Assembly (NCBI GenBank): GCA_951406725.2
Contig: OX597814.1
Location: 155,000,001-155,064,000, forward strand
Length of the DNA: 64,000 nucleotides
Source of the DNA: Octopus vulgaris
Lineage: Eukaryota
Direction of reading: 5' to 3'
Shown: piece by piece, positions 5,503 to 63,491 of the stretch
Numbering within the stretch: position 1 is the stretch's first letter
How the letters are laid out: each line of letters starts with the position of its first letter
The notes under the pieces: model-generated
Seen by the model: only the letters and a program-made list of their open reading frames with translations
Databases searched by the model: none
What the model was told of the DNA's origin: nothing
Translations under genes and position numbers: made by a program

Positions 5503-6117
5503 CATCATTATCATTATCATTATCATTATCATTATAACGAAACAACAACTAGAGTGATAGCAAACACTATATGAGAGCAATGAGATACTTTAAAAATGCT
5601 ATGTCACAACACTTCACATGTTCTTAGTCTTGGTTTTCTTTAACAAAATACTTCCAATTTGAGCGGTTGTTGACTCTATACAAGAGACCGGTGGGGGCTC
5701 ACAATTCACATGTGTACGATGATGAAGATGGTGTTATATGCACTAACATACTTAGCTTGCATCTATAAATACAAATTACGTTGCATCTGTAAATAGACCA
5801 TCATGTTGGGTGGCAATGATGCATTCGCCAGCAAGCTGTAACCACTTGTACACCGAATGTGCTGAATCATATTCGAAATCAGCAAGCTGTGCATTAGCCG
5901 ATGCACTAGAATCTTCTTCGTTCGTCATCTTTGCTGTGTCTTACTTACAAAACTCCACTGTAAAACCTTCGCCAAATCTTTTATCCTTAGAACGGCAACC
6001 ATCTGGAACTCATGATCGTGCACATTTTCTCTGCAGGTATCAATCTTTAGAAGTTTTTTTGATCAACGGTTGATGTTCAAGAGCAATGAACTCTACTCGT
6101 TCTCGTCATAAGGAAAA

Positions 6118-7186: not shown

Positions 7187-9590
7187 CATGCAGCTATAAG
7201 TCTGTAAGCTAGCTGGCTGGCTGGCTGGCTGGTTCACGTTTTCTGACATCTTATAATAATGTATCAACTCATTGCAAAATCTCTTGAAATTTAATCTAAC
7301 ATAACAAGGTTTCTTGTGAATGATGCAACAGCGATAGGCAACACTATACTATGGCTAAAAAGTTGCTTTTGTTGCTACGTGTGTTAAAGTTCAATCCTAC
7401 AGAGCAGCACATTGCATAAACGTTTTCTAGACTTAGACAAACCAAAGCCTTTTGAATAAAATTGATAGATAAAAACTGTGAAAACCAGCTAGTGTAGCTG
7501 TTTCTGCATTTTGGCGGTGGATTTAATCCGTCATCTGGTCTAAAACCACCGTTAGACACTTGTTATAAACATCTGGGTTAGAATCCAGTTTTAGGATAAT
7601 TTTCCGCCTCTTTCTCCCAGTTGTATGCTCTGAAAAAGCGCTATGGGTGATTCCCTTCCTCCTCTCACTAAATGATAAGAATGTTTTGAAATGCACGTCA
7701 GGATAAGAATCTAGAGCCATATTTCTTTTGAAAATTGACAATACTCAGAGGAACGCAGCTCCGATAACAGACAGAGTCAACATCCACTGACAAGGTTGCA
7801 AAAGAAACGAAACTTTTTGGAATACACATAAAATAAATAAAATGAGTGGAAATTGAACCGGTGAGTGTGTTAGATATTAAAGCAGTATGCCTTTGCCCAG
7901 ATATATCAAAATACTTAGAAGAGTTTCACTTTATTTCTCTCTGAACTTCTTGTCTCTTTGTTTTCAATATACTAATTTGACGGTGAAAGCACGTGGCCTA
8001 GTTGCTAGGATGTTGCATTCACGACTGCAAAATAGTAGTTTCGATCCTCGGGTCGGGCAGTGCGTTGTGTTTTTGAGCAAACTACTTCATTTCACATTAC
8101 TCCAGTTCGCTCAGCTGCGATGGTCTAGCGTCCTGTTCAAGAGGAATGTTGCGATTTCTGCCCCTTATGCTCCATGGAAAGCGGGTAACCAGCTGTATGA
8201 GTTCTAGAACTCGAGATTCTACTTACTTTTATTTGTTTGAAAAGAAAACTTCCATGGGTGTTCGTTTCTGTTTTTGTGTTTTCAGTTTATCATGATGTGA
8301 ATTCTATACACAACGCCTACATGATTTCAAATAACAACCAAATTCCCCTTAAACTACAAGTTAGCATTCCCTCGCCAAAATAAAAATTAGGAAGGCATAT
8401 GATAATTAAGTAATGTAAAACTGGATTCATTGTCTGAAAATCAGATGTGGTGACCATATCTGGAAAGCATTGTTCATACATCAGCTAGCTCGGGGATGAC
8501 CTGTGGTTGAAAAACAGTAACGTCAATATTCCTTTAAATTTATTATTAAAAAGTCATTTCAACTAATTGCTCAACGACATTGGTTTCGTCTGAATAAAAA
8601 AAATTACCCTTTCATACGTTCTAATTCAAATATCATTTATTTGTAAAGAACATTGGTTTGCACCGGAACCTCTAATTCACTGACATATTTGTATGCTGAT
8701 GTTAGGGAAGAACTATATAATTATTCCTGATGCTTGTGTAATAAATAATTATTTAATTCACCTTAAAATGTTCTAAAATAAAAGTGTTAAAATGTCGATT
8801 AGTGCATGCCATCGATGTAACCATGAGTTGAAAAGCCGATTTTAATCACTTTAATGAGAAAAATGATATATGTAGAAAATTAATTGAATTATAAATGAAT
8901 TAAAACTAGTTTCACCAAGTGTAGTTTACACTGAAAGTCACCATCAAGTAGATGCACTTCAATTCATCCTCAGTTCTATAAACATTTAGCTTCACTCGTT
9001 GTTGCACCAACATAGCCGAAACAAGATTTGACGTGAGGCAGCTTACACACCTTTCGTAGACAGTACACAGAGAGTAATGTTGATTAATTAGAACTTTAGT
9101 AGCTTGGTGAAAATCCCTCACCAAAAACTCCTTCTTCCCTTCACCATAATTTCCAAAAGACACCCATACATTCACAGACGCACATAAATACATACGCGCT
9201 CAAACTCACGCGCTCTCATATAGACAATGAGATTTGGGATGCTGGTAAAATCTGATTCTAGACAAAAATTTTAAAGTGAAAGTTTTAAAGACGCAAAGAA
9301 ATATCAATTTTAACAGCACCAACAGAAACAGTTTACTGACTAAAGACACTTTTTTCATTATTTATTTATGTTCGTATTTTATGTACAGGTACTAACTCGC
9401 AAAATCATGGCATAGATATTTATGTTTATGTACCTATATTTGTATTATTATACCTCATTATCAGTGTTCAAAGTTACTATACGAAGTCAAATATGGCATT
9501 TGAGTCGACGTAGTTTTTTCATCCATAAAAAGTTCTGTCAAGCTATTAGATTCAATATATACACGCATAAAGCGGTGAGCTGGCAGAATC

Positions 9591-10580
9591 GTGTGACCTT
9601 CTATACAAATATAATTTGCAGAAAATATACGAGGTCGTCCGCACGAGGTGGGACCTGTATATAGTTCTACCTATTATACGTGCAGTTATTTTTCAAAAGT
9701 CCTCGTTTTGGTGCACTAAATTAGCGGAAAACAATACTGCAGAAAATAATTTACTGCAGTGGCTTTCGCCGGTTAGAGAACGTATTAATTTAAATTTAAA
9801 TTTAAAATGAGGGTGAGAAATTGGATATTAATTTAATTAACATCAATTTAACACCAGTGGTCTAGCATATTAAAATTCTGAAAGTTCATTAAATTGTATT
9901 ATATACATATGAGAGGGATGACCGCCATGTGGACAACCCTTATGCTAGAAGTAGATCCGCTATGGTCTAACCACTAAGAAATGTTCTCAAGAAAAATGCT
10001 CTCAAGAAAAATTTAGCAATTTCTCACCCTCATTTTAAATTTATAATTTAAATTTAAATTAATACGTTCTCTAACCGTCGAAAGCCACTGCAGTAAATTA
10101 TTTTCTGCAGTATTGTTTTCCGGTAATTTAGCGCGCCAAAACGAGGAATAACCGCACGTATAATAGGTAGAACTATATACGACCTCGTGTGGACGCCCTC
10201 GTATATTGTTCTGCAAATTATATTTGTATAGACGGTCACACTGAGGATCTATGGACAAATTGCGTAAGTGAAATTACGTAATCTGTTTATAGTGAAACAT
10301 GTATGTGAATAATCTATAATCTATATTTTTGTTACTTTTCATATGTCTTGCACGCTTACGTTCTGGTGTTTACTAGACTTTTCTTGAGAACATTTCTTAA
10401 TGGTTAGACCATAGCGGATCTACTTCTAGCATATATGTTGTATACATGGTGGTCATCCCTCTCATATATATATATAATACAATTTATTGAACTTTCAGAA
10501 TTTTAATATACTAGACCACTGGTGTTAAATTGATGTTAATTAAATTAATATCCAATTTCTCACCCTCATTTTAAATTTAT
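9591..10580. repeat. Nested long inverted repeats (P-Q-P'-R-Q'), PLE-like inverted terminus
   Basis: 9591-9823 is inverted at 10018-10241, and about 9798-9994 is inverted at 10379-10580. ORFs 9616+ and 10013- share ENNTAENNLLQWLS. Confidence 0.85.
10236..10308 (+). ncRNA. Type I hammerhead ribozyme motif (minimal palindromic stem III)
   Basis: TCACA-CTGAGGA-t-CTATGGACA..ATTGCGTAA/TTACGTAAT..TGTTTATAG-t-GAAA-CAT-GTA^TGTGA. Stem I 5 bp, long stem II, U10.1.U11.1, ACATGT palindrome. Confidence 0.8.
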
Positions 10581-10599
10581 ATGTATATATATATATATG

Positions 10600-10698
<99 letters not shown>

Positions 10699-10719
10699 AT
10701 ATATATATATATATATATA

Positions 10720-10910
10720 AATCTAATGCTCGTAGCTTAGTTTTTCCTTGAGGCTGGCCGGATCGGAGCGATCTCGAGATTAATCAGCCGAAATTGCTAG
10801 GATGATCCGGTTCTTGACTGAAGATTGAAGGCTTCGAATGTCCCGTCCGTGTTTTTTGTATCGTCTTCTAAATGTTTTACGTTCTTGTCCCAGTTTGTAT
10901 TTTTCTACAT
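10720..10910 (+). mobile_element. Family A non-autonomous repeat between (TA)n tracts
   Basis: Homologous to 11830-12070, 12620-12812, 46172-46300, 53485-53717 and 62300-62510. Confidence 0.8.
10752..10824 (+). ncRNA. Rearranged hammerhead ribozyme, family A, intact core
   Basis: GGCTG-g-CCGGATC-gg-AGCGATC^TCGAGA-ttaat-CAGCC-GAAA-TTGCT-aggat-GATCCGG-t-TCTTGA-CTGAAGA; all four helices pair. Confidence 0.8.
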
Positions 10911-11410
10911 ATTTATATATATATATATATATGTACACACACATATGATTTTTTCCCTCTCTCGTATTCCTTAATCCCTTTCCCCTCTCCCATATCTCTT
11001 AGTCCTTCTGCCTTCTTCAACTCCTCCCCTCCTCTTCCACGTGATCACTGTCCAGTTTAGGCATTTTCGTATTTTTTCGGCTGACCACCTTTCAAGTTAG
11101 TCGCATCTGTTCTGTTCTGTCTCGTCACCCGGTCAGTTAAGATTTTTCCATTTCTTTTTTCCTTGCTATAGCCTACTACACTGTCTGATAGTCGAAAAAC
11201 TCTGTTTTGTTTTATTTTTATTGCAATTGTATAATTATTTTCCTTTTGTTGTATAGCCGAAAAGCTTTTGTCCATTGTATATAATTATAATTCTATTTCT
11301 TATGTTACGTTCGTCCGATAGTCGAAAGACCCTTTCAGTTTGTTATTTCCTTGTGTTAGTATATGTACATTTGTTTGCCTTGCTTAGGGTTTTAATGTCT
11401 TCAGGCCTTA

Positions 11411-11483
11411 GCTCAACTGGTTTCGAGTAGTATCGGAGAGGATTGGGCGAAACTACGTGGACATTCCAGACTCCGATTAAAGG
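11411..11483 (+). ncRNA. Rearranged hammerhead motif, family D, CUGANGA decayed
   Basis: GCTCA-a-CTGG..GTAGTA^TCGGAG-aggat-TGGGC-GAAA-CTAC..CCAG-a-CTCCGA-TTAAAGG; all helices pair. Confidence 0.65.
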
Positions 11484-11957
11484 GGTAATTGGCAGCGAAT
11501 GATCCGTATATCTTGTTTTGTCCCGTTTGCCATTGTACACACACACAGTATCTCACATAAGTTTGCCGAGCTATCGTCATTTTCCTGCTTGTTATGTTTT
11601 GACGATTCGGTTTACGTTGTTTCTTTTACCCCTAAAACATACATACATACATACATACATACATACATACATACATGCATACATATATACATACATACAT
11701 ACATGCATGCATATATACATGCATACATATATATATGTTGTGGATTTATAGAAAGAAAGCCCATAAAGCTCAAAAAATATATTCATATATACGTATGTAT
11801 GTATGTTGTCCCATTTTGTATGTTATATATATATATATATACAAGAATGGGACAAGAACGCAAAACACCCGGACAGCTAGGTGATACAAAAAGGGACAAC
11901 AAAACATCCAGGTAGATGATACAAAGAAAACAAGGACGGGTCATTCGAAGTTTTATT

Positions 11958-12030
11958 TCCTCAGTCAAGCACCAGATTATCATCGCAATTTCGGCTGATT
12001 ATTCTTGAGAGTGCTCCAATCTGGCCAGCC
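11958..12030 (-). ncRNA. Rearranged hammerhead, family A (CTGAGGA; 16.2 mismatch)
   Basis: Minus: GGCTG-g-CCAGATT-gga-GCACTC^TCAAG..CAGCC-GAAA-TTGC..AATCTGG..CTTGA-CTGAGGA. Confidence 0.7.
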
Positions 12031-12593
12031 CAAAGGAAAAATTAATCTAAGAGCATTAGATTCCTTGGAAAAAAGCAAATGTATACAAAAATAGTGACTG
12101 AGAAAGCAGACAATGTTACACAAATATGAATACAAAAAATAATAATAAAAATAATAACAGGGCATAACAACAAGTGTCTTTCGACTAAGGACGAATTGAA
12201 TTGAACTGGTGCGTGTGGAAATGAAGCCTTACGGCAGAGATACAAAATTTTCACAAACACAGGGAAGAATATCGATGTTGCACGGACAATGGTCAGAACA
12301 AGAAAGAAAGAGCAGGCTTGACCGAACACCACGTGGGAAGAGAAGAGAGAGAAGTAGAAGCAGAGGGACAGAAGAATTAAGGAGGGGCGAAAAAAAATGA
12401 CAGGGACACAGTGAAGTGAAAAGTGGAGGGAAAGTAAGAAGCGAAGGCAAAGAAATGTGAGAGAGGGGAAACGGAAGAACGAAAAGTGGAATGAACGAAT
12501 AAGCGTGAAAGGGCGTGATAGACAGAAATAGAGTCGTACAAGATTTTGAAAAATGTGTACTTACATATTAGAGACCAAAGTGTACGTACGCAG

Positions 12594-12629
<36 letters not shown>

Positions 12630-12744
12630 CAAAATGGGATAAGAACGCAAAACTTCCGGACAGCTAGGTGATACAAAAATATACAACAAAACATTCAGAT
12701 AGACGATACAAAGAAAACAAGGACGGGTCATTCGAAGTTTTCTT

Positions 12745-12812
12745 TCGTCAGTCAAGCACCAGGTTATCCTCGCAATTTCGGCTGATTATTCTTGAGATTG
12801 CTCCAATTTGGC
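12745..12812 (-). ncRNA. Rearranged hammerhead, family A, 5'-truncated (CTGACGA)
   Basis: GCAATC^TCAAG..CAGCC-GAAA-TTGC..CTTGA-CTGACGA; the GGCTG strand is replaced by another repeat at about 12813. Confidence 0.6.
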
Positions 12813-13099
12813 AACGCCACGCATCCATTTCCAACTGAGTTTATCTTAACCTTTTTGATGCAACTCTACTCTATACTGTTTTCTCTCTCATCCTTTTATA
12901 ATTCCCCTTCTTCCCTTCACTGTTTTCTATCTCTCTCTTTCTCCTTTCTCTTTTACTCTTTCTCCTTGCTCACACGTAACCATTATCCATCTTTTTTTTC
13001 CTCAAGTGACCATCTTTCTTTTCCTGCACGACGTTCTAAAAAATGGACGTCTTCTATCTCTCTCTTCAAACGTTATTGTTTTGAAAGAGTATTTCTCCC

Positions 13100-16824: not shown

Positions 16825-17180
16825 CGTTGCTATTATATCAAACTGTCGTATGTCCAAATTTGGCCAAATGCGTTTTTTTTTATTTTCAGTATTTATTTTT
16901 GTTTGCACTAGCTGGTTATTTTGGTCAAACTATCGTATCTCCAGTTGCTTCAGATGCCAAGGTGTCAAAAGTTGTACAACAGTTTTGCTATGGAATGGTG
17001 GAACTGTTTTCGTTTTCTGAAAAAGCAACGGTTTGGACTTACGACACTTTTGTATAATAAAAACGATATATATATAATATATATCGTTTTTATTATACAA
17101 AAGTGTCGTTCTGAAAAAGCAACGGTTCGGACTTGTGACACTTTTGTATGAGAAAAATTATATATACATATCAGTAATTC

Positions 17181-17252
17181 AGGTTCTACCGAGACTTAAA
17201 CTCGGATCTCTGGATTCAGAGTCCAGAGTGCTAACCATTACACCATAGAACC
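17181..17252 (-). pseudogene. tRNA-Gln(CTG) copy with T-loop mutation (TTT for TTC)
   Basis: GGTTCTATGGTGTAATGGTTAGCACTCTGGACTCTGAATCCAGAGATCCGAGTTTAAGTCTCGGTAGAACCT; B-box C56 lost. Confidence 0.8.
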
Positions 17253-17353
17253 TGCTACCGAATAACTGCCACATATTACATTTACGGATAAATTCCTCTA
17301 TTTACATAATATCGCGGTCTCTATTATTCTTTTGTTATCTTACCCTTTTATCA

Positions 17354-18622: not shown

Positions 18623-18693
18623 AGGTTCTACCGAGACTTGAACTCGGATCTCTGGATTCAGAGTCCAGAGTGCTAACCATTACACCATTAACC
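18623..18693 (-). pseudogene. tRNA-Gln(CTG) copy with damaged acceptor stem
   Basis: 5' end GGTTAATGG instead of GGTTCTATGG (71 nt); the rest is intact. Confidence 0.8.
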
Positions 18694-19060: not shown

Positions 19061-19372
19061 TTGTGTGTCTGTGTTTGTCTCCCTAGCATTGCTTGACAAC
19101 CGATGCTGGTGTGTTTACGTCCCCATCACTTAGCGGTTCTGCAAAAGAGACCGATAGAATAAGTACTGGGCTTACAAAGAATAAGTCCCGGGGTCGATTT
19201 GCTCGACTAAAGGCGGCGGTGCTCTAGCATGGCCGCAGTCAAATGACTGAAACAAGTAAAAGAGTAAAGAGTATATCGTTTTTATTATACAAAAGTGTCG
19301 TTCTGAAAAAGCAACGGTTCGGACTTGTGACACTTTTGTATAATAAAAATTATATATACATATCTGTAAATC

Positions 19373-19444
19373 AGGTTCTACCGAGACTTGAACTCGGATC
19401 GCTGGATTCAGAGTCCAGAGTGCTAACCATTACACCATAGAACC
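19373..19444 (-). tRNA. tRNA-Gln (anticodon CTG), intact
   Basis: GGTTCTA/TAGAACC acceptor stem, CTGGA-CT-CTG-AA-TCCAG anticodon arm, CCGAG-TTCAAGT-CTCGG T arm; TTTTT terminator about 23 nt downstream; matches metazoan tRNA-Gln. Confidence 0.93.
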
Positions 19445-19559
19445 TGCTACTGAATAACTGTCACATATTACATTTACAGATAAATTCCTCTATTTACATA
19501 ATATCGCGGTCTCTTTCATTCTTTTGTTATCTTACCATTTTTATCAATGTATATATATA

Positions 19560-20842: not shown

Positions 20843-20999
20843 AAGAGCTAGTATAAAGATCAACTGTATCTGCAATTTTAAACCTATCTCTAAACATAAA
20901 CCTGAACTTGAAAATAAAAGTATACATAAGCTAATAACTAATACTTACCTTTAAACCCCTCTCTATCACTAATCTTATGCTAATCCTGAATCAAAATGC

Positions 21000-21079
<80 letters not shown>

Positions 21080-21081
<2 letters not shown>

Positions 21082-21973
21082 GGACAACTTCCAGAGATCC
21101 CTGGCCTGGCGGTGCTACCGAGAAGCGCTACCCGTTCGGGATAAGCTCTATAGGCATGGCTCGAGAAACACGCGGCCGACCTGCCCGAGATGCGGGCAGA
21201 GCGACGAAACCGCTCTGCACGCAATCGTGCAGTGTCCAGCAATTTCCCACCTGTGGGCTTATGTCGAACGACTGCTGTCACGTGTGGAACGTGTCGGTTT
21301 ATCAGCCGAGTCTATCGTTAATATCGTCACGCCTCCTTCCTTCAAACGGGAAGGAAGAGCTATTTTTATCATACTTGTGGCTATGGCGAAAGAATGTATC
21401 TGGTGGACGCGTCTGAAAGGATTAGAGACAAACACTTTCCTCTCTGGTCAATCTCTCATCAACTTCTTCAAGTATCACTTGAAGAAAAAAGTGAGAGTAG
21501 AGAGGCAAGTTTTGTCTAGTGAATGTTTTAAAAAAAGATGGGTGAATATAGCAAGGATGGCACGTATGAATGACGAAGCAACCTTGACTATGATTCTATG
21601 AACCGTAAAAATTAAGACAGAGAGTTGCTTATTTGCAAAAAAAAAAAGAAAAAAAAGAAATATAACATGTGACTTCATTGACCGAGGTTACCGTGGTCTT
21701 TTCCGTAGGCTTTTCTTTCCACGGGTAAACCTCACCTGTCCTCCCCTTTACACTTCATATTGACATTTCTGTGATAACGATCCCTATTGATCAATTTTTT
21801 TCCTCTCCCCCTTTTTTTTTAACCCCCCCTTTTTTTGTCCTCTTTCTCTCCTTTTACGATCCCTTTTGATCGACTCCCCCCCCTTTTTTTTTTTTTTTTT
21901 ACCTTCAAAAGAAAAGCTCTACCTTGTAATTTGTTCTATCTGTGTGCAGCCCTGTGTGGCTAATAAAGAAACA
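21080..21973 (+). mobile_element. 5'-truncated L1/Tx1-like LINE: ORF2 C-terminus (zf-RVT) + 3' UTR, inserted in (TATC)n
   Basis: Open frame to TGA at 21601 with LAWR..ALP..CPRC...ETALH...C...W (CCHC zf-RVT); AATAAA at 21962 directly before (TATC)n. Confidence 0.85.
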
Positions 21974-40109: not shown

Positions 40110-41985
40110 CATTCATGGCTGTTGAAGTGCCTACATCTGGCGAAAGTACCTACTACCTTAATTGGTGGTATAGAGAGACTCACAAAGACATGGACAACAA
40201 TTTTTAGCCTTACTACTGAGAACAGAATAATTGTTTTTGATAGTATAGTCATTTCAAAGGGAATATTGCAGGGGGATATTCTTTATGTACTTCTTTTCAT
40301 TTTGACACTGAATTCATTATCGTTCCTACTGCAAATTGTTACATGCTAGGATCTTCAACTGCTAGAAATATCAATGTAACTCATAATTTCTTTGTAGACG
40401 TCCTGAAGATTTATGCTAAAAGTGTTAACAATGCCAAAAAACAACTGGAATTAATAACAACATTTTCAGCTGATATAAGCATGGAGTTTGGCCAAAAGAA
40501 ATGTTCATATTTGGTTATAGAACGAGGAAAGTCAGTCCCCCAAACCCAAAGCCTGTGCGTCAACGGTCTCTCTGTCTCTCGTATTCCACACAAAGAATGT
40601 TACAAGTACCTAGACATAGATAAAAATATTTCACATGAAGGTATTTTGAATAAAGCTAGAGTGTCCCGAGAATATTACACCAGATTTAGGAAAATATGGC
40701 AGTCGTAACTCTCCTCTTACAACAAAACAATATCCCACAATGCATTTGCAATACTAATGCTGATCCCAACATTTGGGATACTTAATTAGTCTGTAGAGGA
40801 AATTCACTCCAAAGATATCAAAACCCTCAAAATCCTGACAACGACTGGGAACTTCCTCAGAAACAGTGATGTTGACAGGCTCTACCAAAGAAAAAATGAA
40901 GGTGGTAGAGGCCTGGGATCAGCGCAGGCGGCCTTCGAATGCCGTATTGTATCACTCAAGCAGCACCTGCTAAACAACAGCAACAAAAATAAATATATTA
41001 ATGCAGTGCTGCAAAGTGAAGTGAGCAACTTTTTACGAGTTGGCAATGAGCTCCTCAAGAAACGCTCTCTTCCTGATGATCTCCTATACAGCCTCAAAAC
41101 AGGTGGGCTATTTTATCTCAGAGAAGACCTAGATGGAAAGCACTCAGCATACAAAAAAAAAAGACTATGCAAGGGAATAGTCCGGAAAAGTATTGCCCGG
41201 AAGCTTGAAGAAAACAGTAGAATTGACACGAAGCGCAGCCGCTCTTGGACACAAGACCACATCGCATCACACTTTTGCAATCCAGGAATAGAAGATTGCT
41301 ATAAAGTACCTATAAAGTAAAGTGAACAGTAGAGACAGTGACGCTCTTGTAATCCCAAGGTACAACCGCATGTGCAGGCTATGTCATGTTTCTGTGGAAG
41401 ACATCACGCATGTGATTAGCAGCTGTCCTAAAATGTCGTCACGGTACTACCTCCCGATATGAAACGACGCTGCTGCTAAAACAATTCACAATGCCATCCG
41501 CAAAAAAGACTGTCCTGAAATAAGCTTAGAAAATCCCTGTAATGGAATACATTCATAAACATCAATTCAAGAAATACTGGTGGAATATTTTCATCAAAAC
41601 TTGTATTAAATGTAAACATAATATGCCAGATATTGATCTTCGGGATAGAGGGGCAAAGGTGTGTATCATCACAGAGGTCAGCTGCCCAGCAAATATAAAA
41701 ATCTGCTTCGATATCCAAACTATGAATTCATATTCATACCAATAATAATTGGAGCACCAGGTTTTGTTAGTAAATGCTTTAAGGAAAATCAGGATAAACT
41801 GGAATTTTCAGAAAGAAAAATCGATCGGCTAATTCTTACATTACAAGTGCAATCTGTGAGTGGAACAATACAAATATACAAATCTTCTCTCAAGTTACAT
41901 ATGTGAATTTGTCTATGTTAACTACATCCCGAAGATGTGCACAGGGCTAAGTAAATTGGTTTGGCATCTTAAAGACAACAATAAA
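40110..41985 (+). mobile_element. Decayed 5'-truncated R4/Dong-like non-LTR retrotransposon (RT + CCHC + restriction-like endonuclease)
   Basis: KGILQGD (RT5), HNFFVDVLKIYA (YADD region), DISMEFGQKKC, YKYL, GGRGL, CRLCHVSVEDITHVISSCP, and HNMPDIDLRD..IITEVSCP (PD-(D/E)xK); many frameshifts and stops. Confidence 0.85.
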
Positions 41986-44024: not shown

Positions 44025-44900
44025 CCAATAAGTAGCCGGACTGTTGCTATAGTAACGAAGCTAAAGCACGCAGAGTAAACCCGCTGGACAAAGATTGACC
44101 TTGAAATCTGCTGTGCATTAAGTCTTTTACGTTCATGCGCATTAAGTTTTTACGTTCTAGCTCACTTCCGCTGTTTACAGCAGTGCTTGGAAGGAAGAAT
44201 AACGTATGATCGTCGCATTGACCATGACAGAGAATGTTGTCATGTCGATACCTGCTCAGAGGCCTATGCAAAGTTGCAGAAGGTGTATGGAGAGGGCGGT
44301 GTGAGCCGCACACAAGTGTACGAGTGATTCAGACATTTCCAAGATGGCCGATAAAATGTCGATATTGACGAATGTTCAGGGATGCCCGTAACCAGCAGAA
44401 CTATGAAGAATATCGCAGATGTGCGTGCAACTGTGAGAGGAAATCGTCGAATCATCATCCGTGAGTTATCAGAGGATGTGCAGGTTATTTACAGTTCAGT
44501 TCAGTCCATTACCACTGAAGATGATGAAGATATGAGACGCGTATCTTCCAAGTTTGTCCCAAAACTGCTTTCAGCTGACGAAAAGGACATTCAGGTTTCA
44601 GTCGCACAAGATCTTCATTCTGTCGAGAACAATGAAAACATTTTGAAAACTTTGCATAGGCCTTTGAGCACGTATCGCCAAGCTTTAGGCTAAATTTAAT
44701 GCAGATTCTCTCCTCAAATTTCTGTCATGGTCAATGCGATGATCACACTCTAAACGCCTTCCTTCCAAGCACTGCTGTAAACAGCCGAAATGAGCTAGAA
44801 CGTTGAAACTTTGTGCACATACACACCAGAGTTCAAGGTCAATTAACTCTGCGTACTATAGCTTCGTTACTATGGCAATAACCCGGCTATTCTTATGGAT
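44025..44900 (+). mobile_element. Internally deleted mariner element with long (about 200 bp) inverted ends
   Basis: AGCCGG..GCTATAGTAACGAAGCTA..GCTGTTTACAGCAGTGCTTGGAAGGAAG..CGCATTGACCATGACAGA is inverted at 44718-44895; internal HTH remnant ..NRRIIIRELSE..MRRVSSKFVPKLLS. Confidence 0.85.
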
Positions 44901-46023: not shown

Positions 46024-46173
46024 CATACATACATACATACATACATACATACATACATTCAGTCATTCATTCATTCATTCATTCATACACACGTACATAC
46101 GTATATACATATATGCACAATTTTTCTGTATATACACATATAATTGCATATATACAGGCATATAATAAATCCA

Positions 46174-46214
46174 TCAGCCGAAATTGCGAGGATGATCCGG
46201 TTCTTGACTAAAGA
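46174..46214 (+). ncRNA. 3' half of a family A rearranged hammerhead (G5 mutated)
   Basis: CAGCC-GAAA-TTGC..GATCCGG-t-TCTTGA-CTAAAGA. Confidence 0.5.
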
Positions 46215-53609: not shown

Positions 53610-53682
53610 TCTTCAGTCAAGAACCGGATCATCCTCGCAATTTCGGGTGACTAATCTTGAGATTGCTCCAATCTGGCCAGCC
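53610..53682 (-). ncRNA. Rearranged hammerhead, family A (CTGAAGA; single mismatches in stem II and helix X)
   Basis: GGCTG-g-CCAGATT-gga-GCAATC^TCAAGA..CACCC-GAAA-TTGC..GATCCGG-t-TCTTGA-CTGAAGA. Confidence 0.7.
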
Positions 53683-62302: not shown

Positions 62303-63491
62303 TAAACGTTAAAAAAACACAAACTGGGACAAGAACGTGAAACATTTTGAAGACGGCAAAAAAACACACAGACGGGACTTTCGAAGCTCTCAGTCATCAG
62401 TCAAGAACCAGATCATCTTCGCAATTTCGGCTGATTAATCTTGAGATTGCTCCAATCTGGGCAGCCAACCAAGGGAAATCTAAGCCAATCGCATTAGATT
62501 CCTTGGAAGAAAACCTCGAAAGTATACAACACGGTGACGGAAAAACGGACGATGTTACTCGAAAAAAAAAAAATTCAAAAATACGTAAAAACAATAAAGA
62601 AAGCACGGATAAAAATACAAAATAACTTAAAAACAATCATAACAAAACCAGGACGTCAGGACAAGCGTCTTTCGACAGGACGAGTTGAGTATAGGGCTGG
62701 CTGTGCACACGGATTTTTTGAAATTCCCCACAATCTGTGCCCTGGCACATTCCCAAGAAAGTGAACGCTTCTTGTCTGCAAGAAATTTGGTTAAAACAAT
62801 GTTCTTGCTGAAGCTATCTGCCTGTGTTTTCCATCGGTCTCCCGTCTCTTATATCTGTGATTGGAAAAAACTGCGCGTTCGAATATAACAAATGATGTGT
62901 ATTGTTTGAAGAATGAGAACTGTAATGTTCAGTTTTAATTCTTCATCTCTTTTATTGTTACGAATTTATATTTACAAGGGACACTACCATTTTAGGGAAA
63001 GAAAGACAAGTTACATTGACAAGTACTGTTTATGAAGGAAAAAAATTTACGTTCATTGAGAAGGTAGAAAAATGTTTGTGGAAGTAGGAAATGTTTTAGT
63101 TTTAGGGTAACATTTCTTTTTACAATCTAACAAGTTGACAGAGACGGGACGATGATTACTGCCATGATCGAAAATTTGGCGGTTGTCATGCCTCGTTGCT
63201 CATATCCACAGATTCGATCTCTTTTATTGAGTTCAGAACTAATCTTCCTGGATAAATCTATGGTGAAATTATGGCATGTCTCATAATTTTATTGGCCATG
63301 TTATTGTAAATGTCATCATTCATTTTGAAAGATCCTGTTGGTTAAAGCATACTTTATTTGAAAAGAAAACATTCGGAGTTAAAACTGAGGCAGAGATCTG
63401 CTACATTGCTGAAATTGATAGCTGATGCGGGTAGGTTCGATTACTGTCTGGTATCATTTGCGATAGATGTTTGCCAAGAGAGGGGTGAGCA
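61722..63491 (-). repeat. Two diverged direct copies (61722-61987 and about 63222-63491) of a probable decayed PLE RT segment
   Basis: Shared GAAAACATTCGGAGTTAAAACTGAGG..GATCTGCTACATT. Minus translation gives ..ADLYL..FK.xDD(I/V)..IYP..L, which resembles the PLE RT YIDD region. Confidence 0.45.
62394..62466 (-). ncRNA. Rearranged hammerhead ribozyme, family A, fully intact
   Basis: GGCTG-c-CCAGATT-gga-GCAATC^TCAAGA-ttaat-CAGCC-GAAA-TTGC-gaagat-GATCTGG-t-TCTTGA-CTGATGA. Confidence 0.82.

Follow-up and report, generated by a model that had tools for sequence, protein, structure and literature searches.

A likely hammerhead motif with a core opened between A9 and G10.1 in a Naiad-type retrozyme-like family of Octopus vulgaris

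We analyzed a 64,000-nucleotide stretch of the Octopus vulgaris genome (assembly GCA_951406725.2, contig OX597814.1, forward-strand positions 155,000,001 to 155,064,000; referred to as the window, with positions counted from its first letter) in which an initial annotation had described, at 10752–10824, a hammerhead-type motif comprising a long-range helix, X. The helices and the core are borne out, and the flagged DNA is likely a copy, truncated at its 5' end, of a Penelope-like (Naiad-type) retroelement that is non-autonomous and whose full-length copies would fold as a pseudoknotted, AUC-cutting hammerhead. The core bases occur in the order S-G-C (the blocks bearing the cleavage site, the GAAA and the CUGANGA, respectively), with the 5' strand of stem II shifted upstream; the motif probably adds a new wiring to the hammerhead class and resides in a Naiad-type retrozyme. 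The evidence comes from the block order, from the pairing and covariation of the three stems (I, II, III) and of helices X, Y and Z, from the copy number, the tandem units and the fixed 3' end of the carrier element, and from the occurrence of the same layout in Naiads. The parts of the flagged copy are as follows.

10580..10719, no strand: (TA)n-rich microsatellite, the insertion site of the element, read from the sequence
10720..10912, plus strand: 5'-truncated copy of the family A1 retrozyme-like unit (about 830 bp), 98% identical to unit positions 1–203
10720..10751, plus strand: remnant of hairpin Z, with the inner stem 10723–10726/10737–10740 retained and the 5' base strand and the helix Y 5' strand gone
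10752..10757, plus strand: stem II 5' strand (GGCTGG; G10.1 is 10752), displaced upstream; partner 10784–10789
10758..10764, plus strand: 5' strand of helix X, which bridges stems I and II; partner 10804–10810
10768..10779, plus strand: block S, with the stem III 3' strand (10768–10772), C17 (10773) and the stem I 3' strand (10774–10779)
10784..10797, plus strand: block G, with the stem II 3' strand, GAAA (10790–10793) and the stem III 5' strand (10794–10797)
10804..10824, plus strand: helix X 3' strand (10804–10810), stem I 5' strand (10812–10817) and core CUGAAGA (10818–10824; A9 is 10824)
10827..10841, plus strand: helix Y 3' strand, whose partner is missing in this copy, placed from the co-fold of sibling locus L002 and pair counts

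Every base of the hammerhead core is present, namely CUGANGA, GAAA, UH with the A15.1–U16.1 pair, and the R10.1–Y11.1 pair. In the flagged copy, the three elements listed as complete by the annotation are indeed found at 10818–10824 (CTGAAGA), 10790–10793 (GAAA) and 10771–10773 (ATC), and the cut predicted between 10773 and 10774 agrees with the latter, the site being placed by analogy with known hammerheads. The order of the blocks is not the circular C-G-S order of hammerhead types I, II and III, on which the Rfam models are built, but that of the pseudoknotted, non-circular type SGC of Eckert et al. (2023, PMC10085705). As described there for HRIMA-1 and its variants, type SGC shares with the octopus motif the full core, the short stem I–stem II linker and a helix that bridges stems I and II beside the stem II and stem I 5' strands; helix X, which begins right behind the upstream stem II strand and stops one base short of stem I, occupies the position of this bridging helix. 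Unlike in type SGC, where the stem II 5' strand directly follows CUGANGA, block C is split in the octopus motif: the strand preceding GAAA pairs not with what follows A9 but with GGCTGG at 10752–10757, so that the annotation had rightly started the feature at 10752, taking in the displaced strand. Given this upstream stem II partner and the placement of X, the motif amounts to the SGC/CSG cycle with a cut placed between A9 and G10.1. Owing to the altered block order, an Rfam scan of the window gave no hammerhead family among the matches listed (150 of 157, E ≤ 1); matches to mir- families lay on (TA)/(CATA) repeats, scored below the gathering threshold and were discarded.

What closes the gap between A9 and G10.1 is probably a junction formed by two additional helices, Y and hairpin Z. 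More specifically, two-strand co-folding of 66 upstream and 20 downstream bases in 31 copies, each compared with 100 shuffles, places the start of Y 0–2 nt past A9 and Z directly before the stem II strand. The Y+Z co-fold of young A, B and C copies and of one E copy beats all or nearly all of the shuffles; sibling L002 forms 13 Y pairs (−26.0 kcal/mol versus −12.4 when shuffled) and the 62394 copy a 15-bp Y (−36.7 versus −17.8 kcal/mol), no shuffle being as low in either case. The damaged copies of the window did not pass this comparison. Minimum-free-energy folding of the 73-nt core was no better than for shuffles (z −0.77), with a program that cannot form pseudoknots and is thus uninformative for a doubly pseudoknotted core.

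Covariation supports all three stems (I, II, III). Among 18 hand-picked family A variants, 95.1% of the cells are paired and 8 of 24 pairs have changed on both sides; none of 500 shuffles reaches the observed pairing, and slid registers pair at 13–45%. When Y and Z are included (20 variants), 90.4% are paired, with 16 both-sided pairs, five of them in Y, which is paired at 81.7% when taken alone. Stem II is wholly replaced between families, so that its support is mainly cross-family: it reads GGCTG/CAGCC in family A, GCCCAA/TTGGGC in B, GAAGG/CCTTC in C, GACACC/GGTGTC in N and GAGCA/TGCTC in E, with GGGCA/TGCCC in one E copy. A scan that demanded an upstream stem II partner gave 64 distinct passing sequences from 166 matches, falling into families with unrelated stems I, II, III and X; in all 64, only 0–1 bp with stem II can form directly past A9. 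Note that families B and C had first surfaced in a scan without the stem II requirement, and family N through a pattern lacking the upstream strand, and that the chance of finding an upstream partner anywhere in the 40 upstream bases is 0.008–0.054 per family. Altogether, the layout is retained in five or more families whose stem sequences differ. Family D (L166), a single decayed copy that failed the Y/Z and Watson–Crick tests, is not counted, and L124:1210–1274, among the passing sequences, is probably a chance match.

Random expectation is exceeded at the level of the window and of the genome. The window holds 13 GAAA..CTGANGA spacings versus 2.56 expected, and none of 100 shuffles reaches 13. 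A four-helix descriptor of the layout, which demands a stem I of at least 5 bp and would thus miss minimal hammerheads, found two sites in a 600-kb unbiased genome sample versus none in each of three shuffles, and no site for the six published hammerhead orders in that sample; in the window it passes only at 10818 (plus strand) and 62400 (minus strand). Over the whole genome searched (2.8 Gb, 227 contigs), the pattern GCCGAAA-N18-34-CTGANGA has 13,122 matches, versus 199 for the reversed control.

The carrier is a non-coding, retrozyme-like element of about 830 bp, inserted in (TA)n, that occurs as a tandem repeat with one motif per unit, which is the organization of a retrozyme, except that the hammerhead is permuted and not of type I. 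The nearest relatives of the flagged copy, found on numerous contigs, are 98–99% identical, and among them is an array of 830-bp units; the repeat length of other subfamilies is about 713–865 bp, and units overall measure about 700–870 bp. Copies share a common 3' end about 85 nt past the core, which runs into (TA)n, vary in their 5' truncation and sometimes have an inverted partner attached (L019, L022, L025). Insertion in (TA)n, 5' truncation and inversion are described for Penelope-like elements (PLEs) by Craig et al. (2021, PMC8557442); together with a 3' motif of Naiad layout, these marks fit a dependence on Naiads. A splice-donor-like word, GTAAGT, occurs near the unit start in subfamilies A1 and A2 (L014, about 30–35 nt after the 3'-end/TATA junction; L081, L084, L086), with a TAACCCT word just ahead of it in A2 units; PLEs carry a 5' intron. 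The unit is covered by assembled contigs from eight sequencing runs that are presumably RNA; such contigs carry no information on RNA ends, circles, strand or level, their breakpoints scatter around the predicted cut site, and they are not used as evidence.

The flagged copy is a clipped representative of this family, and the word 'intact' in the annotation does not apply to it. It stops at the 3' end fixed in its siblings, followed by a second (TA)n run, and its unit alignment starts at 10720, directly after the first run and inside Z, so that the base of Z is lost; among the 30 closest loci (L001–L030), no other lacks the helix Y 5' strand altogether. Because this strand is missing, the activity of the flagged copy itself is doubtful, and we put it at somewhat below an even chance. 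The copy also departs from its siblings at 10751 and 10776, where 27 and 28 of the 29, respectively, differ from it. Position 10776 bears on the stem I change (TCAAGA to TCGAGA) that the annotation had drawn, together with a stem III change (GCAAT to GCGAT), from the 62394 copy: each change does give a G-U pair, but the 28 siblings have A at 10776 and the stem I pair is thus essentially private, a post-insertion change that says nothing about selection. The annotation had further cited, against the 11958 copy, which is itself damaged in stem III, a change of X from CCAGATT/AATCTGG to CCGGATC/GATCCGG. Two pairs are indeed changed on both sides, but a hand tally of the first 100 among 4,262 genomic matches shows their coupling to be partial. 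Pair 7 moves cleanly along a U-A/U-G/C-G path (34, 30 and 32 copies, 96 paired, four mismatches), whereas pair 3 is A-U in 45, G-C in 18, an A.C mismatch in 34 and something else in three, G being seen only together with C. Two of the four changes cited, the private stem I G-U and this X pair, are therefore weak evidence; the strong evidence is the covariation across subfamilies and families and the Naiad ends of other phyla, not the flagged copy.

Craig et al. report Naiads as lacking canonical hammerheads, with eight flagged for an HHR half core, and propose no fold. Reading by eye the last 330–420 nt of 52 of the about 54 Naiad consensus sequences in their File S5, we found the octopus layout at nine 3' ends (Bfor, Chem-3, Amil, Aacu, Anas, Movir-2, Obim, Ovul and Esco), from a ctenophore (Bfor), cnidarians and cephalopods. 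Bfor, Chem-3, Amil and Movir-2 show Y and Z clearly, Aacu has two mismatches, and the Esco end is decayed; Ovul and Esco are among those flagged for the half core. Six nematode ends (Naiad-1/2/3_Nbra, Hcon, Hpol and Asuum) have the uninterrupted CSG order, a form published from only two metagenomic sequences according to Eckert et al., and the remaining ends display neither arrangement within the part shown. At the hammerhead position, bivalve, hemichordate and two Clytia Naiads have in common another motif, GRCGGGTG ... CACCTG, which is conserved, looks structured and may be a further candidate self-cleaving RNA. In the octopus genome, the Ovul-type end has 355 matches (control, none), in old, truncated copies, and Naiad endonuclease fragments are present, which together agree with an octopus as host: among 150 scored of 12,443 candidates, 14 matched at 47–100% identity, all of them fragments, seven with stops. 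No PLE open reading frame lies upstream of the family A, B, C or N loci examined. A young intact PLE family (L305–L312) has frames of 725–784 codons, with the reverse transcriptase followed by GIY-YIG, and inverted truncated partners; from its C-terminal endonuclease we read it as Neptune-like. Its 3' end has merely a degenerate minimal-hammerhead-like hairpin. Separately, a repeat resembling a minimal hammerhead in canonical order, but with CUGAUGA followed by one extra base, occurs on L313 (minus strand, about 8600–8660) and L314 (about 5900–5970), the L313 repeat having the same stem II as family A, GGCTG/CAGCC.

In the proposed mechanism, helices Y and Z would form a junction that keeps A9 next to G10.1 and so replaces the backbone connection, X would serve as the stem I–II interaction docking both stems, and the core would cut after C17 of AUC. 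Cleavage of tandem transcripts would release unit-length RNAs (about 830 nt), possibly circularised, which a PLE reverse transcriptase/GIY-YIG endonuclease would copy into (TA)n sites. Position 9/10.1 is a known soft spot of the hammerhead: PLE hammerheads are described as conserving an extra base there (Cervera and de la Peña 2014, PMC4209133), and the hammerhead of chrysanthemum chlorotic mottle viroid (CChMVd) as tolerating one (PMC3705267). Type-SGC RNAs with an X-like helix and CSG RNAs cleave in vitro, as reported by Eckert et al.; unit-length RNA from tandem transcripts is documented for type I retrozymes (Cervera and de la Peña 2020, PMC7229834), and copying by a PLE enzyme is argued by Li et al. 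(2026, 10.64898/2026.07.22.740005).

A number of points weigh against this reading. An A9/G10.1 junction far exceeds the tolerated one-base insertions, and Eckert et al. assumed block C to be uninterruptible; core insertions at a different position impaired cleavage (PMC3088659); and AUC is given as rare at natural sites and, in one viroid, as the least efficient co-transcriptionally (PMC1636495). Kinship of the sequences can inflate the shuffle test even without structure, stem II has a single both-sided change inside family A, and the A.C mismatch at X pair 3 affects a third of the copies tallied. Y/Z co-folding failed in the old N copies L223 and L219 and in L176 and L166, and the E copies L175 and L183 were not better than shuffles (28/100 and 38/100, respectively). 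The cross-phylum evidence from Naiads depends on reading by eye. As to the enzyme, there was no intact Naiad open reading frame (with its N-terminal GIY-YIG) among the 150 candidates scored, 12 of the 14 endonuclease fragments had no linked ribozyme and no intact reverse transcriptase, and the Neptune-like PLE shares no sequence with the unit. Finally, in A1, C and E stem II could find a 4-bp partner downstream, which keeps a plain or switching SGC model, considered below, at low odds.

A rival reading is that the fold is real and selected yet does not cleave, serving instead, as a derivative of the hammerhead, for 3' recognition by the PLE reverse transcriptase or for RNA stability. The interruption at A9/G10.1 speaks for it, as does the fact that copies end about 85 nt beyond the core and not at the predicted cut site. 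We nevertheless consider it unlikely, given that CUGANGA, GAAA, the U16.1–A15.1 and G10.1–C11.1 pairs and a non-G at position 17 are kept across families and phyla with unrelated stems (with the proviso that the scans required several of these) and that nematode Naiads have, at the same place, the uninterrupted CSG form, which cleaves in vitro. A plain type-SGC hammerhead, in which the 5' strand of stem II would follow CUGANGA after a short insertion (GGCU, 10830–10833), possibly switching with Y, seems quite improbable. The offset of the 4-bp downstream partner is 5 in A1 and 1 in families C and E, and GGCU is free in the truncated 10752 copy because its Y partner is lost; but GGCU is normally paired in Y, the downstream partner is shorter than the 5–6-bp upstream one, is missing or at another offset in A2, A3, B and N and was not seen by eye in cnidarian and ctenophore Naiad ends, and its use would leave X unattached to stem II. 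A ribozyme of non-pseudoknotted order active only between neighbouring tandem units, as a dimeric hammerhead, is highly improbable. Units do occur in tandem arrays, and PLE minimal hammerheads are described as functioning as dimers (PMC4209133); yet each helix finds its full partner inside one 150-nt motif, which Y closes, stem III (4–5 bp) is not palindromic, assembly between units would still require the A9/G10.1 break, and Naiad_Ovul and Naiad_Esco are listed in PMC8557442 without a pseudo-long terminal repeat. That the pairings arose by chance in a repeat that was then amplified is barely credible: high copy number does inflate counts and the core does not fold better than shuffles in a program without pseudoknots, but the six-helix geometry persists with unrelated stems in several families and three phyla, and cross-family covariation contradicts it.

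The other copies of the class in the window are listed below.

62377..62523, minus strand: motif of family A2, complete with Y, Z, II, X, III, I and core, from the descriptor and the co-fold
11824..12814, minus strand: older family A3 tandem 1.2-mer, with cores at 11958–11964 and 12745–12751, 787 bp apart
53610..53682, minus strand: 5'-truncated copy of family A that lacks the Y 5' strand and has a mismatch in stem II
46170..46214, plus strand: family A fragment without block S, with a mutated core, CTAAAGA
11411..11483, plus strand: family B copy with identical layout, entirely different stems and a decayed core, in an element of about 700 bp at about 10950–11630

Six family A copies are thus present in 64 kb, versus two in the first 200 kb sampled. 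The complete copy is the one at 62377–62523, whose sequence is identical over 141 nt at 14 genomic places, itself included, and it is the best candidate of the window for an activity test; of the two A3 cores, that at 11958–11964 has a stem III mismatch and the 12745–12751 copy is 5'-truncated. The microsatellite region 10580–12814 holds three nested insertions of the class, namely the A1 fragment (plus), the family B unit (plus) and the A3 1.2-mer (minus). Elsewhere, the window contains a tRNA-Gln(CTG) gene cluster on the minus strand (17180–17253 and 19372–19445, with a weaker Rfam match at 18623–18693) and decayed open frames (20990–21601, 40244–41320 and 44355–44693) that, in our reading, resemble remnants of non-LTR (long terminal repeat) retrotransposons and of a mariner-type transposase.

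Compared with known systems, the octopus motif differs from type SGC, which Eckert et al. describe from metatranscriptomes only and from no genome of a known organism, in being genomic, with more than 10,000 copies, and in having all three inter-block linkers closed, its ends entering through Y with hairpin Z. It has the same cyclic wiring as the two metagenomic type-CSG sequences of that paper, but these are opened after block G with block C intact, whereas the octopus form is opened inside block C. Like the Naiads of Craig et al., with their (TA)n targets, tandem and inverted 5'-truncated copies and a motif near the 3' end, family A has the marks described for PLEs, but it is non-coding. With the animal non-LTR retrozymes (PMC7229834; Li et al. 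2026) it shares a non-coding, tandemly repeated organization in which each unit bears a single hammerhead, dispersal as monomers to multimers and a proposed PLE dependence; those are described as having type I hammerheads and units of about 300 bp, whereas the octopus units measure about 700–870 bp and bear a putative ribozyme that is non-circularly permuted. The minimal hammerheads of PMC4209133 share the PLE context and a departure from the consensus at 9/10.1, but theirs is a single extra base in a canonical block order, with dimer dependence and low activity. In the literature covered, to which subscription journals contributed poorly, only Eckert et al. treat type SGC, and there is no account of a hammerhead whose core is opened at A9/G10.1, nor of how the Naiad half core might fold.

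In conclusion, we keep the reading of a pseudoknotted hammerhead opened within its core, and we lean towards the wider proposal of an active seventh hammerhead wiring, in which a three-way junction opens the SGC/CSG cycle at A9/G10.1, ancestral in animal Naiads, missed by all descriptor searches and driving the more than 10,000 copies of a still-young retrozyme family. Eckert et al. counted six hammerhead orders on the assumption that CUGANGA and the adjacent stem II strand are inseparable; a motif with cross-phylum covariation breaks this assumption and places non-circular hammerheads, in high copy, in animal chromosomes. A hammerhead tolerating a helix junction at A9/G10.1 would also offer a new site for allosteric engineering. 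As for the Naiads, whose lack of canonical hammerheads was a puzzle, the ribozyme seems to be present in a wiring invisible to descriptors, and, if the wider proposal holds, non-circular permutations would count among the major classes in animal genomes instead of being a metatranscriptomic rarity.
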